From a virus (taxonomy: Duplodnaviria > Heunggongvirae > Uroviricota > Caudoviricetes), in the IMG/VR virus record IMGVR_UViG_2700989544_000016: DNA of 7,174 nucleotides. One strand, written 5' to 3'. The notes beneath the pieces are model-generated. The model was not told where the DNA came from and did not search any database. It saw only the letters and a list, made by a program, of their open reading frames with translations. Shown piece by piece: positions 2,973-7,174 of this stretch. Each line of letters starts with the position of its first letter. Position 1 is the stretch's first letter. A program made the position numbers and the translations under genes.

Positions 2973-3260
2973 TTAAGGTGTTACAGGGAACTGTCGGCGG
3001 GCGTGAACTACGTTAACAATTTCAATGCCTGAAATTGTCACGCGGTACAGAATGATGTAATTGGGGTGAGCTACAATTTCACGCAAACCAGGCACTCTGT
3101 CGCTTGGCGGGTATAAATACGGATGTTCAGATAATGGCAGGACGCAAGTCCTTAAGCGTTTCCACAAACGTTCTGCCGCATCTATGTCAAAACGTGCAAT
3201 ATAGCTGGTTATATTATCTAGGTCGGCATCTGCGCTTTCGAGCCATAAAACCGGTAACAT
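2973..3260 (-). CDS. parE: Type II toxin, RelE/ParE superfamily (ParE-like), 95 aa
   Basis: Track ORF 2973..3260. The sequence MLPVLWLESADADLDNITSYIARFDIDAAERLWKRL...REIVAHPNYIILYRVTISGIEIVNVVHARRQF matches the conserved layout of ParE/RelE toxins. The start abuts the antitoxin stop. Confidence 0.85.
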   Translation of the reverse strand: MLPVLWLESADADLDNITSYIARFDIDAAERLWKRLRTCVLPLSEHPYLYPPSDRVPGLREIVAHPNYIILYRVTISGIEIVNVVHARRQFPVTP

Positions 3261-3452
3261 TTACTGTTTGCTCCGTTCCTTGCGCATGTTAGCAAAGCGT
3301 TCAGCCATTCTGCGTTCAACTTCGTCATGGGGAATGGCTGGACGTGGATCAGCAAGGCTTGCGGCCACTTTTGCACGCAGCCATTCGTTATAACTATTTT
3401 CTTGCTCGACGGTTTCAAATTCAGAAACCATTGGTGAAAGGGCCGTGTTCAT
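3261..3452 (-). CDS. paaA: Small antitoxin (63 aa) cognate to the ParE-like toxin, PaaA2-like
   Basis: Sits immediately upstream of the toxin and is adjacent to it. Size, order and charged C-terminal half fit PaaA-type antitoxins of three-component paaR-paaA-parE modules (from memory of E. coli O157 prophages). GAGG lies 9 nt upstream of the ATG at plus 3450-3452. Overlaps the regulator gene end by 32 nt. Confidence 0.7.
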   Translation of the reverse strand: MNTALSPMVSEFETVEQENSYNEWLRAKVAASLADPRPAIPHDEVERRMAERFANMRKERSKQ

Positions 3453-3882
3453 GGTGAACCTCGTCTTGTAAGTGCTGGTAATCCTGCCTAGGAACTTTTT
3501 GTTGTGCTGCTAGCCACTTTGCAACTATACGATCCATTGTCTCTTTTTTCTCTTTCATATCTTTAAGCATTTGCTGTTGCTCTTCCTCTGGAAATGCCTC
3601 AAATGTTTGAAGTAGTTCCTTTTGCGTAGGGGTTATTTTTAATATATCCTGTGCCCTGTCCTTATTTTCTTCATTTAATGGTAAGAAAAACCAATACTGA
3701 GGAAATCCAGTCACATCAGATAGTTTATCTAGGTTGGCTGCTGTAGGGCTTGAGATGCCACAAGCCCACCTTTGGACGGATTGTTGAGCAATACCAATTC
3801 TGCGCGCAAGTTCTGCTTGGCTCCAGCCTTTTGCCAATAGAAGCATCTTAATTCTAAGAGCACTAATTTCGAGTACGCCCAT
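3421..3882 (-). CDS. paaR: HTH_XRE transcriptional regulator (153 aa), PaaR-like / DicA-like, paralogous to the adjacent repressor
   Basis: N-terminal helix-turn-helix (SQAELARRIGIAQQSVQRWACG). The central segment ITPTQKELLQTFEAFPEEEQQQMLKDMKEKKETMDRIVAKWLAAQ is clearly homologous to the C-terminus of the neighbouring repressor. No LexA-type peptidase domain. Confidence 0.8.
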   Translation of the reverse strand: MGVLEISALRIKMLLLAKGWSQAELARRIGIAQQSVQRWACGISSPTAANLDKLSDVTGFPQYWFFLPLNEENKDRAQDILKITPTQKELLQTFEAFPEEEQQQMLKDMKEKKETMDRIVAKWLAAQQKVPRQDYQHLQDEVHHEHGPFTNGF

Positions 3883-3912
3883 CTGATATCTCTTGTTTTA
3901 GTAAGTATCCCG

Positions 3913-4284
3913 TCAGGCTCGGCGACCCTGCCGCGCCAACCAACGTGCAACAAGATCTTCCATTGCCTCTTTTTTGTTTCTTAGCTCTTTTATGATTTCC
4001 TGCTGCTCAGCGTCAGGAAAAGCACTAAATATTTGCAACAATTCCAATTGGTTAGGCGTTAATGCCATAGTTCTTGATGACGGAGATTCTGTTGTATCTT
4101 CAGGTTCCATATCAAGATACCCCCCAGGCATCCCATATGTTTGCTCAATACGTCTAGCTGCCTTTTCGCCAAACGTAGCTTTACCGCTCATTAACTGAGA
4201 TAAGTAACTTTTCTCTTTAGGCGGCAAAGTCCTGTCTTTGAACCACTCTTTGAGGCGTAAACGCCGAATCTCTTTTGTTTCCAT
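3913..4284 (-). CDS. Prophage repressor (123 aa), DicA/RacR-like, lacking an S24 peptidase domain
   Basis: Sits at the divergent promoter region opposite the cro-like gene. N-terminal phage-CI-type HTH (KEKSYLSQLMSGKATFGEKAARRIEQTYGMPGGYLD). C-terminal LTPNQLELLQIFSAFPDAEQQEIIKELRNKKEAMEDLVARWLARQ resembles my recollection of DicA. No SD before the ATG, consistent with a leaderless transcript. Confidence 0.8.
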   Translation of the reverse strand: METKEIRRLRLKEWFKDRTLPPKEKSYLSQLMSGKATFGEKAARRIEQTYGMPGGYLDMEPEDTTESPSSRTMALTPNQLELLQIFSAFPDAEQQEIIKELRNKKEAMEDLVARWLARQGRRA

Positions 4285-4386: not shown

Positions 4387-4668
4387 ATGACGCTAAAGGA
4401 ATTCATCAAATCATTAAAAACTGGAGAAGCAAAAAAATTTGCGACCAATCTTGGTGTGTCTCCGTCTTTCTTGTCCCAAATGGCATCTGGAACTTCACCT
4501 GTGTCTCCTGTTCGTGCGTTGATGATAGAAGCAGAAACTGGGGGACATGTTACAAGACGAGAATTGAGACCTAATGACTGGGAGCTTATATGGCCCGAAT
4601 ACACGGGAATCACGTCCCCTTCACGTCACAAATATGAACTTAACACCAAAAAGGCTGATGGAGGTTGA
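4387..4668 (+). CDS. Cro-like HTH protein (YdaS-type), 93 aa
   Basis: Divergent from the repressor. The N-terminal sequence KKFATNLGVSPSFLSQMASG reads as an HTH. Track ORF 4387..4668. Weak RBS. Confidence 0.7.
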   Translation: MTLKEFIKSLKTGEAKKFATNLGVSPSFLSQMASGTSPVSPVRALMIEAETGGHVTRRELRPNDWELIWPEYTGITSPSRHKYELNTKKADGG

Positions 4669-4671
4669 TTC

Positions 4672-5097
4672 ATGAAAATCAAGCATGAGCACATCCGCAT
4701 GGCGATCAATGCTTGGGCCTATCCGGACGGTGAGAAAGTTCCTGCAGCTGAAATAGCCCGGACTTATTTCGAACTGGGGATGACGTTCCCTGAACTGTAC
4801 GACGATACTCATCCAGGCGCTCTGGGTCTTAATACCCAGAAGATTTTCCGCTGGGTAAAGAAAGATACTCCTGATGCCGTTGAAAAAATGCAGGCTCTGT
4901 TACCAGCTATCGAAAAAGCAATGCCGCCTCTGCTGGTGGCCCGAATGCGCAGCCACAGTTCCGCTTATTTTCGGGAGTTGGTAGAGACGAAGGAACGGCT
5001 GGTGAAAGATATTGATGATTTCGTTGCATCAGCGATCGTTCTGTTCGATCAGATGAATCGTGGTGGCCCGGCAGGAAACACTCTGGCTGTGCATTAA
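4672..5097 (+). CDS. YdaT-like protein (141 aa), probable functional analogue of CII
   Basis: ATG 4672 with a strong GGAGG (4660-4664, 7-nt spacing), 3 nt after the cro-like stop. Position after cro, and the MKIKHEHI... start, match my recollection of YdaT-family proteins; unverified. Confidence 0.55.
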   Translation: MKIKHEHIRMAINAWAYPDGEKVPAAEIARTYFELGMTFPELYDDTHPGALGLNTQKIFRWVKKDTPDAVEKMQALLPAIEKAMPPLLVARMRSHSSAYFRELVETKERLVKDIDDFVASAIVLFDQMNRGGPAGNTLAVH

Positions 5098-5110
5098 TTG
5101 GGTAATAAAT

Positions 5111-5620
5111 ATGAGTAATGACAAAAAATTGACACTGAGCGTTTACGAAAACAGTCCGCACATCTGGCGTGGCGGTTTATCTGATGTGGAGCTGGCAGAG
5201 TGGTTGATACATAAAGCTAATGCGCTGCTCTGGCGTTTGTCAGCCAGAGAACAGCGCAAGGAAACCAGAATAAAGCTGGCTGATGCAGAAGCGTGTGCCG
5301 GGCTTATTGAGGATTATACAAATCTTGGTATTTCTTCAGCAGAGAGTGATCCCATTCAGCCTCTGAGCAGGGAGTCAATCCAGCACGCTGGTTGTATGGC
5401 ACATCTTGTAACTGCTCGTCAACATGAGGTGGGTATTGGATCACTTCCGGTGGGATATTCGATGATTCCAGAGCTGGTTGAAGCAAGAAAATCAGTTCAG
5501 AAAAAGAGAGATGACGCACTTCAATTATTGAGAGAGCACTATGGCGCGATACCAGAATGCGAACAGCGTCGATACCCTGAAGGTTATGAATGGATGCAGT
5601 CTCTTTTTGAAGTTCGCTAA
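5111..5620 (+). CDS. Hypothetical protein (169 aa), unrecognised, between the CII-like gene and the replication gene
   Basis: ATG 5111 lies 13 nt after the previous stop, with a weak RBS. The track ORF 5060..5620 begins at a GTG overlapping the upstream gene. Composition is coding-like. No motif recognised. Confidence 0.55.
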   Translation: MSNDKKLTLSVYENSPHIWRGGLSDVELAEWLIHKANALLWRLSAREQRKETRIKLADAEACAGLIEDYTNLGISSAESDPIQPLSRESIQHAGCMAHLVTARQHEVGIGSLPVGYSMIPELVEARKSVQKKRDDALQLLREHYGAIPECEQRRYPEGYEWMQSLFEVR

Positions 5621-5837
5621 TCAATATGTCGAGACGAAGGTATGTTTCGGCGCGCAGCCAGGCTCTGTAATCCGGGAGCATTTCGGGGCTGTTACACCAG
5701 CGGTTTGTTGCTGCAACATTTAATACATGAGCCTGATAAAGGCTTTTCAAAAAATACATGTCGAACCTCCTCTGGTTCTGTCGATTGGGAACCACAGATT
5801 ATATCCGGAGGAAGGTTCGGCACCAGATGAGGTAGCC

Positions 5838-6149
5838 ATGCGTGATTACGCAAAAGTTTCTCCGCGATTCTGGCTGGGAGAAACGGGGAGAGAACTTAGA
5901 AAGGCGGGTGCAGAAGCGCAAGTTGTTGCTTTTTACCTGATGACATCCCCTCACGCAAATATGCTGGGTTTGTATTACCTGCCAGTTTTATACCTTGCTC
6001 ATGAAACCGGGCTTGGTCTGGAAGGGGCTTCAAAGGGGCTTCAAAGGGGCTTAAAAGGGCTGTTGAAGCTGGTTTTTGTAGCTATGACCATGATGCAGAG
6101 ATGGTCTGGGTCCATGAAATGGCAGCCTGGCAGGTTGGGGAAACGTTGA
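5838..6149 (+). CDS. Replication initiator (lambda O-equivalent, YdaU-like), N-terminal part; the frame is broken inside the 11-bp repeat at 6022-6065 (frameshift or assembly error)
   Basis: Frame-3 ORF. Likely start is ATG 5838 (GAGG 5 nt upstream, MRDYAKVSPRFWLGETGRELRKAG...); the alternative ATG 5727 is in frame but has no RBS. After ...LAHETGLGLEGASKGL the conserved-looking reading continues in frame 2, not frame 3. Confidence 0.6.
   Translation: MRDYAKVSPRFWLGETGRELRKAGAEAQVVAFYLMTSPHANMLGLYYLPVLYLAHETGLGLEGASKGLQRGLKGLLKLVFVAMTMMQRWSGSMKWQPGRLGKR
6022..6065. repeat. Iteron-like 11-bp tandem repeat cluster 1 (AAGGGGCTTCA x2, AAGGGGCTTAA, degenerate AAGGGCTGTTG)
   Basis: Direct reading of the sequence: units at 6022-6032, 6033-6043 and 6044-6054, with a degenerate unit at 6055-6065. 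One helical turn per unit. Confidence 0.7.
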
Positions 6150-6670
6150 AGCCTGGCGATAACCGTTGTGCAGGTGTCAGGAATGAGTATGCATCATTAC
6201 CTGAAAACGCTTTTCTGTCAGTGTTTTACGACAGATATAAAACGGATTTCCATCTGGATGTGAGGCGGAATAATAGCCGAAATTCGGTAAGGGGCTTCGA
6301 AGGGGCTTTTAAGGGGCTTCGAAGCCAAGAACAGGAACAGGAGCAGGAGAAAGAACAGGAACAGGACAAAAACACTATGGTTCATGGCAAAAAAAACACC
6401 ACGAACCAGGCAGGGGATGTTCAGACCGTCAATCCTGGTCAGCCAGCAGGCACGACACCGGAAGCCGATTCAGCGTATGCGCTGAAAGCCGATTCGGGCG
6501 CTGTGCAGCAGGTGATGACCGCAGGGTCGGAGCAATCACACCAACTGCAGCAGCCTGAAGCCGATTCCGCCATTCAGCGGGAAGCCGATCGGGTAGTCCC
6601 GGAAAGCACCGGGCAGTCTGTGGGACGAGTGGATTATCCGGATGTGTTCGAACAGGTCTGGCGGGAATAC
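6101..6670 (+). CDS. Replication initiator, C-terminal part in the shifted frame, truncated by the assembly gap
   Basis: Frame 2 is open from 6005 to the gap and encodes ...KRAVEAGFCSYDHDAEMVWVHEMAAWQVGETLKPGDNRCAGVRNEYASLPENAFLSVFYDRYKTDFHLDVRR... plus a QEQEQEQEKEQEQDK linker. Deleting one 11-bp repeat unit joins it in frame to the upstream part. Confidence 0.6.
6289..6326. repeat. Iteron-like 11-bp tandem repeat cluster 2 (AAGGGGCTTCG, AAGGGGCTTTT, AAGGGGCTTCG) with flanking palindromes; candidate origin core
   Basis: Units at 6289-6299, 6300-6310 and 6311-6321. Palindromes CCGAAATTCGG (6277-6287) and GGCTTCGAAGCC (6315-6326). The 33 bp are in frame, encoding RGFEGAFKGLRS. Confidence 0.65.
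6329..6364. repeat. Imperfect hexanucleotide repeat (GAACAG)n encoding a Q/E-rich linker, followed by an A-rich tract
   Basis: GAACAG GAACAG GAGCAG GAGAAA GAACAG GAACAG, then ACAAAAACACTATGGTTCATGGCAAAAAAAACACC (6366-6400). Confidence 0.6.
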
Positions 6671-6781
6671 NNNNNNNNNNNNNNNNNNNNNNNNNNNNNN
6701 NNNNNNNNNNNNNNNNNNNNNNNNNNNNNNNNNNNNNNNNNNNNNNNNNNNNNNNNNNNNNNNNNNNNNNNNNNNNNNNNN
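6671..6781. other. Assembly gap (111 N)
   Basis: A run of n characters. True length and sequence are unknown, so frames cannot be carried across it. Confidence 0.95.
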
Positions 6782-6782
6782 A

Positions 6783-7174
6783 TGCTCGTTTGCGAATTAT
6801 CAGGTGCAGAACGACGGGCAAAAATACGCGCTGAGCCAGGCCAAATCCATAGCTGACGAACTGATGACCGGGTGCACGAATTTTGTGTTCAGCGGTAAAA
6901 CCGGCACCGGGAAAAATCACCTTGCAGCGGCGATGGGTAACCGGCTGATGGCGAAGGGGCGCAGCGTGATTATCGTCACCGTGTCTGATGTCATGAGCGT
7001 GTTGCATGACAGCTACGACAACGGCAAATCCGGGGAAAAATTTTTACAGGAGCTTTGCAGTGTTGATTTGCTGGTCCTGGATGAAATAGGCGTTCAGCGG
7101 GAGACGAAAAACGAGCAGGTGGTATTACACCAGATAATTGATCGCCGGACAGCATCACTGTGCAGTGTCGGGAT
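6783..7174 (+). CDS. dnaC: DnaC-like helicase loader (AAA+ ATPase), internal fragment; start lost in or before the gap, end beyond the window
   Basis: Frame-3 translation CSFANYQVQNDGQKYALSQAK...NFVFSGKTGTGKNHLAAAMGNRLMAKGRSVIIVTVSDVMSVLHDSYDNGKSGEKFLQELCSVDLLVLDEIGVQRETKNEQVVLHQIIDRRTAS. It carries a Walker A motif (GKTGTGKN) and a Walker B motif (DLLVLDEIG), and is colinear with E. coli DnaC as I recall it. Confidence 0.85.

Follow-up and report, generated by a model that had tools for sequence, protein, structure and literature searches.

Repeat clusters and a broken reading frame in a prophage initiator gene

The DNA analyzed here, a 7174-bp window from the virus record IMGVR_UViG_2700989544_000016 (Caudoviricetes), contains at positions 5838-6671 part of a gene of a lambdoid or Rac-like early-right operon, which encodes a predicted replication initiator and is followed by the gene of a DnaC-like helicase loader. 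Two clusters of an 11-bp repeat lie within this initiator gene. The sequence AAGGGGCTT was found as an exact match at 6022, 6033 and 6044 and again at 6289, 6300 and 6311, with no other copy in the window, and the clusters, spanning 6022-6052 and 6289-6319, each hold three copies that follow one another in steps of always 11 bp. The same six matches were obtained with the orientation-neutral pattern AAGSSSCTT, for which 0.34 ± 0.61 matches were expected and six were reached in none of 200 shuffles, and Tandem Repeats Finder reported a period of 11 at 6022-6059 (3.5 copies, 96% matches) and 6289-6324 (3.3 copies). An earlier note on this DNA had described two clusters of 11-bp repeats in the initiator gene, and the exact six-copy count, the shuffles and the repeat finder bear this out; the distance of about 235 bp given there has to be corrected to 224 bp from end to start, or 267 bp from start to start (256 bp in the intact allele). 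Elsewhere in the replication region, the window showed no further cluster of repeats.

Counted in full and degenerate units, cluster 1 occupies 6021-6075 on the plus strand and consists of GAAGGGGCTTC (6021), AAAGGGGCTTC (6032), AAAGGGGCTTA (6043), the degenerate AAAGGGCTGTT (6054) and GAAGC (6065), while cluster 2 occupies 6288-6331 on the same strand with TAAGGGGCTTC (6288), GAAGGGGCTTT (6299), a second TAAGGGGCTTC (6310) and an invariant terminal GAAGCCAAGAA (6321), its three full units all being in direct orientation. The 11-bp unit, GAAG-SSS-CTTC, is a near-palindrome, which suggests a symmetric reader and makes the inversion of an array seamless. The palindromes that had been reported to flank cluster 2 differ in quality: GGCTTCGAAGCC (6315-6326) is perfect and arises from a unit junction (CTTC/GAAG) together with the terminal half unit GAAGCC, whereas CCGAAATTCGG (6277-6287) is a weak palindrome of two 5-bp arms about a central A that is not conserved in relatives.

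The reading frame of the initiator gene changes within cluster 1. Frame A (5838-6149, plus strand) is normal up to approximately codon 68, then continues out of frame and ends at a premature stop at 6147-6149, while the homologous reading resumes in another frame from 6053. This frame B (6053-6671, plus strand) runs into a stretch of undetermined bases and encodes the remainder of a predicted winged-helix N-domain, a linker and the start of the putatively loader-recruiting C-terminal module; its translation matches the relative L002 from about residue 69 onward, as well as the PHROG replication-protein families 1701, 3729 and 270. Intact alleles encode 374 amino acids in E. coli 2014C-3599 and 371 amino acids in E. 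coli O103:H2 12009, and their alignment with the window revealed exactly one extra 11-bp unit in cluster 1 of the latter, for example 6032-6042 relative to the common allele. Since 11 is not a multiple of three, this unit shifts the frame within the putative recognition helix of the protein. As judged from the alignment, the initiator gene in the window, which the earlier note had taken as intact, is an inactivated pseudogene and the extra repeat unit is the cause. The unit was added to cluster 1 by replication slippage, and the system is dead in the window, the sites of which could fire only with an intact initiator of the same type supplied in trans.

Out-of-frame alleles are rare. Among 469 complete E. 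coli genomes carrying the segment, the in-frame allele, which contains two full units, is present in 459, three (2013C-4974, War and OkiPb01713) have the +11 bp allele of the window and one has a -11 bp allele, all four out-of-frame copies being annotated as frameshifted pseudogenes. The prophage of E. coli 2013C-4974 (L001) is 100% identical to the window over 5700-6670, and its initiator gene is called "DNA-binding protein, frameshifted" by the Prokaryotic Genome Annotation Pipeline (PGAP). Besides the initiator gene, other genes of this prophage, among them the DnaC-like one, carry the annotation frameshifted, and the locus also includes an annotated gene for an IS3 transposase; this prophage is decaying, and iteron slippage is one of its lesions. 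A phase-variation switch was considered and rejected in view of the four out-of-frame alleles among the 469 genomes and the decay of the 2013C-4974 prophage elsewhere. No canonical slippery heptamer for programmed frameshifting, by which translation of the +11 bp allele might be rescued, was seen in 6043-6149 in a look by eye only. The window shows how the slippage of iterons can destroy an initiator gene if the number of bases in a unit is not divisible by three.

Conservation of the repeats as DNA across the initiator family

The intact 374-residue protein matched no Pfam family at E values up to 1 save for one insignificant match, and a profile search against sequences of the Protein Data Bank (PDB) found nothing for the initiator. 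It matched phrog_1701 over residues 1-371 (E = 1.7e-148), a family that bears the annotation name "DnaD-like helicase loader"; its C-terminal half matched phrog_3729, 270 and 26426, likewise replication proteins by annotation name, and its last residues matched the tail of DnaT. The N-domain was modeled by AlphaFold2 as a winged helix with the topology H1-S1-H2-H3-S2-S3, the third helix of which (residues 60-73) is encoded by cluster 1, corresponding in the intact gene to the codons for residues 62-73. By analogy, this helix is the putative recognition helix. Cluster 2 encodes part of a disordered, low-confidence linker (residues 141-173, predicted local distance difference test score below 50), a place at which the array is able to change its orientation. 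DNA similarity to sequenced phages begins only at 6369, just past an (EQ)n linker, and those phages have other N-domain types. Judging from these matches, the initiator is modular, with a separate and exchangeable C-terminal half; a DnaT-like tail closes this half, and the gene of the DnaC-like loader comes next.

Matches to the N-domain were found by tblastn in phages derived from Klebsiella prophages, the Shiga toxin (Stx) phages POCJ13 and 75/02, Acinetobacter phages, the Escherichia phages Fraca and CharmingMan and Ralstonia phage NK-7. Pattern scans contributed a further 79 genomic loci, which come from a wide range of Gamma- and Betaproteobacteria and from additional lineages, together with 80 viral contigs. 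The homologue set used for the comparison comprised 57 non-redundant members with less than 90% amino-acid identity and a GC content of the locus between 0.35 and 0.68. Both clusters lie inside the initiator reading frame in the window and in 57 of the 57 homologues, and the motif recurs at the same two gene positions with an 11-bp period in nearly all homologous loci. Cluster 1 has the family consensus GAAGGGGCttcgAAGGGgCTTcaa.g...catcGAAGc, while cluster 2 in relatives contains two to four units with an 11-bp period that always directly abut AGC CAR (GAR CAR)n. In the complete 45-kb Acinetobacter phage B1251, six AAGSSSCTT sites were found against 1.4 expected, four of them in the homologous initiator gene; an extra AAGCCCCTT copy in this phage (L173 5611-5619) lies outside the gene, 38 bp upstream of the initiator start.

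The codons within both clusters are almost invariant. Across the 57 homologues, the normalized codon entropy of 66 conserved background columns had a median of 0.87 and a minimum of 0.53, while 8 of 8 columns of cluster 1 fell below this minimum (Mann-Whitney p = 2e-6) and the six columns of cluster 2 had a median of 0.07 (p = 4e-5). Fixed codons in cluster 1 include GAA (48/48), GGG (50/51), AAG (49/49), CTT (47/55) and the GAA of E73 (46/49), and those in cluster 2 CCT (41/43), AAG (45/45), CCC (42/42) and AGC (56/56). In addition, consecutive units fall in three different reading frames, so that the periodicity exists only in the DNA and no peptide repeat can produce it. The units of cluster 2 run in direct orientation in the window and in a number of enterobacterial relatives, whereas most other relatives have them inverted and several have a mixed array, and inversion of the cluster turns the peptide EGASKGL into EAPSKPL while motif, period and position remain unchanged. 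These flips are scattered across the order of N-domain similarity; POCJ13, for example, has two inverted units and an N-domain 80% identical to that of an E. coli prophage protein with three direct units. Because the codons are nearly fixed, the units are read in three frames and the flips alter the peptide, the comparison indicates that the repeats are selected as DNA and not as peptide, and the clusters are very probably a set of DNA sites. Of the dual constraint proposed in the earlier note, the DNA part is upheld by codon fixation and flips, while the constraint on the protein has lapsed in the pseudogene of the window.

Its proposal of helical-turn phasing applies to the 11-bp period within the clusters, whereas phasing between them is not established. 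In the 57 homologous loci, the distance from the first unit of cluster 1 to the invariant AGC after cluster 2 is almost only 267, 279 or 291 bp, that is, it changes in 12-bp steps, which may result from an added unit together with a single compensating base or else from helical phasing. Inter-cluster phasing is not claimed here, these distances being out of phase at 10.5 bp per turn, codon-quantized and confounded by shared ancestry.

A predicted in-gene origin and its alternatives

Taken together, the two clusters are probably iterons, double-stranded DNA sites to which the winged-helix N-domain binds, and, as such, the predicted core of a prophage origin of the lambda style that lies inside the initiator gene. 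That the repeats are the initiator's own binding sites is very probable from their conservation as DNA in prophages of many bacteria. The repeat sequence also varies with the N-domain type in three examples, namely GAAGSSSCTTC here, GTCACG in Escherichia phage Tritos and AGATGTTCAAACA in YdaU of the Rac prophage; such a joint change of repeat and N-domain is what classically marks pairs of initiator and iteron. The suggestion in the earlier note that the in-gene repeats are DNA sites of a lambda-like origin gains strong comparative backing as a prediction, from codon fixation, the flips of cluster 2 and the covariation of repeat and N-domain. According to the proposed mechanism, initiator molecules would occupy the units, with one per helical turn, and would themselves bend or wrap the origin, upon which the DNA would open in the weakly paired (GAR CAR)n stretch beside cluster 2 and the C-terminal module would bring in the DnaC-like loader with the host DnaB.

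The candidate unwinding region beside cluster 2 is a (GAACAG)n repeat at 6329-6366 (plus strand, period 6 in Tandem Repeats Finder), which encodes the (EQ)n linker. Averaged over 56 loci, no 30-mer of the locus is less stable than the (GAR CAR)n stretch (z about +1.4), and the 60-mer at 6321-6380 is the most purine-rich of the window, with 80% purines on the top strand. At the junction with the C-terminal module follows a lineage-specific A-rich tract (6366-6408) with an inverted repeat at 6378-6408 (arms TGGTTCATGG / CCACGAACCA). The arms of this inverted repeat are 10 bp long, its loop holds an A8 run and a T-run comes next on the minus strand; these features give it the appearance of an intrinsic terminator that lies in antisense to the initiator gene.

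Several observations weigh against an origin at this place. The (EQ)n codons show synonymous variation at background level (median 0.83 versus 0.87), so the (GAACAG)n repeat appears to be conserved as an (EQ)n peptide only and is ruled out as an element at the DNA level; in GC-rich hosts the linker is (GAGCAG)n. The A-rich tract makes a weak unwinding element, the duplex stability of its 40 bp being only about 1 standard deviation below the window mean, and no DnaA boxes beyond chance were detected. Moreover, one iteron has been kept over very distant hosts, although iteron systems normally diversify with their initiator, and the conservation of cluster 1 could in part be due to gene conversion with cluster 2. 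A role in autoregulation, in place of initiation, is also conceivable for sites to which the initiator binds. The paper that defined the Eru types of Stx phages reports a complete lack of knowledge on the replication proteins of these phages (PMC8951638). Of the further origin parts named in the earlier note, the (GAACAG)n repeat is present according to the repeat finder and carries no DNA-level constraint, and the A-rich stretch after cluster 2 is likewise present, modest in stability and not conserved in relatives; accordingly, neither this tract nor CCGAAATTCGG was retained as a conserved origin part.

Other explanations of the clusters were weighed against a predicted origin. They could be operators, transcriptional roadblocks or autoregulatory sites for the initiator or another phage protein, with the origin located elsewhere. 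Constraint at the DNA level reveals sites and not their role, the adjoining unwinding element is weak, and the extra motif copy just upstream of the gene in the Acinetobacter phage would suit an operator. However, the layout, in which an array next to a candidate low-stability linker in the gene of a winged-helix initiator is followed by a loader gene, is that of proven in-gene origins (PMC7466680), the same layout occurs with a different repeat in another N-domain type, and the replication region of the window offers no further repeat cluster, which leaves this account improbable, if to be taken seriously. Much smaller is the probability of a single-stranded element in which cluster 1 pairs with an inverted cluster 2 over approximately 22 nt, either in the mRNA for translation control or in single-stranded DNA. 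Such pairing would fit the finding that cluster 2 is the reverse complement of cluster 1 in most relatives (only inverted units in 33/57), yet the window, Klebsiella prophages and the isolated phage Fraca have both clusters in direct orientation, and there are several mixed arrays. Furthermore, no Rfam family was matched in 5600-6671, and neither the 11-bp period nor the dyad symmetry of the units would have a role in this stem. Long-range RNA pairing of the clusters was thus rejected as not conserved, given the direct or mixed arrays of some lineages.

It is equally hard to credit that the repeats are conserved junctions for recombination, homologous or site-specific, between phage modules or functionless, slippage-prone sequence of low complexity. 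Their copy number does vary by slippage (+11 bp in three genomes, -11 bp in one) and a module boundary lies just downstream at 6369, but slippage alleles are rare (4/469) and disruptive, the boundary is situated past the linker and outside the repeats, and the rare codons GGG and CTT are fixed from 35% to 68% GC, which would not be expected for neutral sequence. Selection on the protein alone, acting on the peptide repeats GASKGL / GFEGAFKGL, is the least credible of these explanations. Although lineages with direct orientation have EGASKGL a second time in the linker, in addition to its conserved occurrence in the winged helix, synonymous sites are fixed and the units occupy three frames, and upon a flip of the array the linker becomes EAPSKPL while the DNA motif, its period and its position persist. 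The peptide-repeat explanation is therefore contradicted by codon fixation, three-frame units and peptide-altering flips.

The best reading of the comparison is consequently an in-gene iteron origin of an initiator family that lacks Pfam annotation and includes Eru4-type Stx phages, since Shigella phage 75/02, the Eru4 representative among Stx phages, carries this N-domain. This predicted origin is distinctive in its 11-bp dyad units, the overlap of one of its two arrays with the putative recognition-helix codons, the free inversion of the second array, the retention of the iteron across very distant hosts and a unit length that shifts the frame. In a speculative extension, which we regard as unlikely, cluster 1 would be a genuine binding site of the initiator and at once encode the very recognition helix reading it, initiator oligomers would bridge the clusters and loop out approximately 250 bp coding for the remainder of the N-domain, and slippage in cluster 1 would repeatedly, and potentially reversibly, switch prophage replication off. 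If this were true, specificity determinant and target would be one inseparable piece of DNA, which would explain an 11-bp iteron frozen from Acinetobacter to Burkholderiales.

Our literature searches found no described origin for this initiator family, and a search with the motif returned only unrelated primers. The family has no Pfam domain and yet is common in prophages of Gamma- and Betaproteobacteria, with homologues also in bins of other phyla. The predicted origin can serve as a starting point for work with origin plasmids and binding assays, for relating phage replication to toxin production and for the annotation of prophage origins. In addition, the locus represents a clean natural case of DNA-level selection overlapping a coding sequence, in which one array is kept in either orientation and in three frames.

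Comparison with known systems and the surrounding prophage

The middle of gene O of phage lambda contains both the iterons, which are inverted repeats, and an AT-rich tract (PMC7466680). As in lambda and the lambdoid Stx phages 933W and P27, the origin predicted here is situated in the middle of the initiator gene, and it likewise has short inverted-repeat units with G-tracts beside a candidate low-stability tract that encodes an interdomain linker (PMC7466680). The plan of lambda O, with an N-terminal domain that binds DNA and a C-terminal one that recruits the loader, is predicted for the present initiator as well, and the number of iterons also varies between lambdoid phages (PMC7466680). 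In contrast, the initiator is not homologous to lambda O; membership in that family was rejected since the protein has no homology to Pfam Phage_rep_O and no PDB profile match. The lambda iterons measure 19 bp, while the units here are 11 bp long at an 11-bp period and form two clusters approximately 256 bp apart, one of them over putative recognition-helix codons, and the orientation of an array flips between relatives. Two additional iterons of the lambda type lengthen the protein in frame by 13 residues, whereas here a single 11-bp unit gained or lost is enough to frameshift the gene. The loader is DnaC-like instead of P.

Escherichia phage Tritos has the same C-terminal module, with 95-97% DNA identity from position 6369 of the window onward, and within its N-domain coding region short repeats likewise form two clusters, after which a repetitive acidic linker is encoded. 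However, its N-domain is of the Phage_rep_org_N (replisome-organizer) type and is unrelated in sequence to that of the window. The Tritos clusters (L174 954-992 and 1214-1262) consist of GTCACG units with a 10-bp period, lie 260 bp apart and are followed by the linker sequence (ACAGATAAAGAT)3, which encodes TDKD repeats. In the C-terminal module of the window, four RAAGCCGAT(TC) repeats are found in frame at 6460-6590 (plus strand; peptides EADS/KADS/EADS/EADR, spacings 24/72/24 bp). Compared with the inverted iteron GAAGCCCCTTC, they agree in 9 of 11 positions. The module to which they belong is common to phages of other N-domain types, Tritos also has these repeats, and the database variant P0001 is without one 24-bp unit.

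The gene order of the Rac module (ydaS-ydaT-ydaU-ydaV) is the same as here, with a YdaS-like gene, a YdaT-like gene, the initiator gene and a gene for a DnaC-like protein corresponding to YdaV, and for Rac an active origin, oriJ, has been reported (PMC3945230). The initiator and Rac YdaU have the C-terminal tail IPPGFRG in common, while YdaU is a DUF1376 protein without similarity to the N-domain of the window. Membership in the Rac-type YdaU/DUF1376 family was rejected, as BLASTP with K-12 YdaU aligned only 19 C-terminal residues and DUF1376 gave no match. The mid-gene repeats also differ, being AGATGTTCAAACA in Rac ydaU and GAAGGGGCTTC here; in K-12 (L172 4505-4580), approximately five AGATGTTCAAACA copies, direct and inverted, are found mid-gene, and these could be the iterons of oriJ. 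The comparison with Rac-type and lambdoid origins proposed in the earlier note supports the lambda-like in-gene layout and speaks against an initiator of the Rac type, as only the 19-residue tail is shared with YdaU. Because both homology tests failed, the element is filed under neither lambda O nor Rac YdaU. Iterons of plasmids usually measure 17-22 bp and are found outside the rep gene or next to it. No sequence homology was detected between the present initiator and the winged-helix Rep proteins of iteron plasmids, for example the initiator of a staphylococcal multiresistance plasmid (PDB 4pta).

Downstream of the initiator gene, the internal part of the DnaC-like helicase loader gene was identified at 6783-7174 (plus strand; Pfam IstB_IS21, 1.3e-17), and its intact homologue matches NCBIfam PRK12377 and DnaC as well as PHROG 50; this loader is the initiator's partner. 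The run of 111 N at 6672-6782 stands in for approximately 507 bp in E. coli 2013C-4974 (L001 6973-7479), whose sequence is near-identical, and conceals the C-terminal end of the initiator as well as the beginning of the DnaC-like gene. Upstream of the initiator lie genes for a YdaT-like (4672-5097) and a YdaS-like protein (4387-4668), preceded by repressor-like genes with a helix-turn-helix (HTH) at 3421-4284 on the minus strand. Between ydaT and the initiator, PGAP places a gene for an "ECs1072 family phage-associated protein" at 5304-5759 (minus strand), which overlaps a longer plus-strand open reading frame at 5060-5620, with no Pfam or PHROG match for either. The two adjacent repressor-like genes (3421-3882 and 3913-4284, minus strand) have a C-terminal segment of about 45 residues in common (…TP.Q.ELLQ.F.AFP..EQQ…KKE.M…VA.WLA), at a place where relatives such as L002 have a single HTH gene. 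Beside this immunity region, a RelE/ParE-RelB toxin-antitoxin pair is located at 2973-3452 (minus strand), and the near-identical genome has a dicB gene annotated still further upstream.

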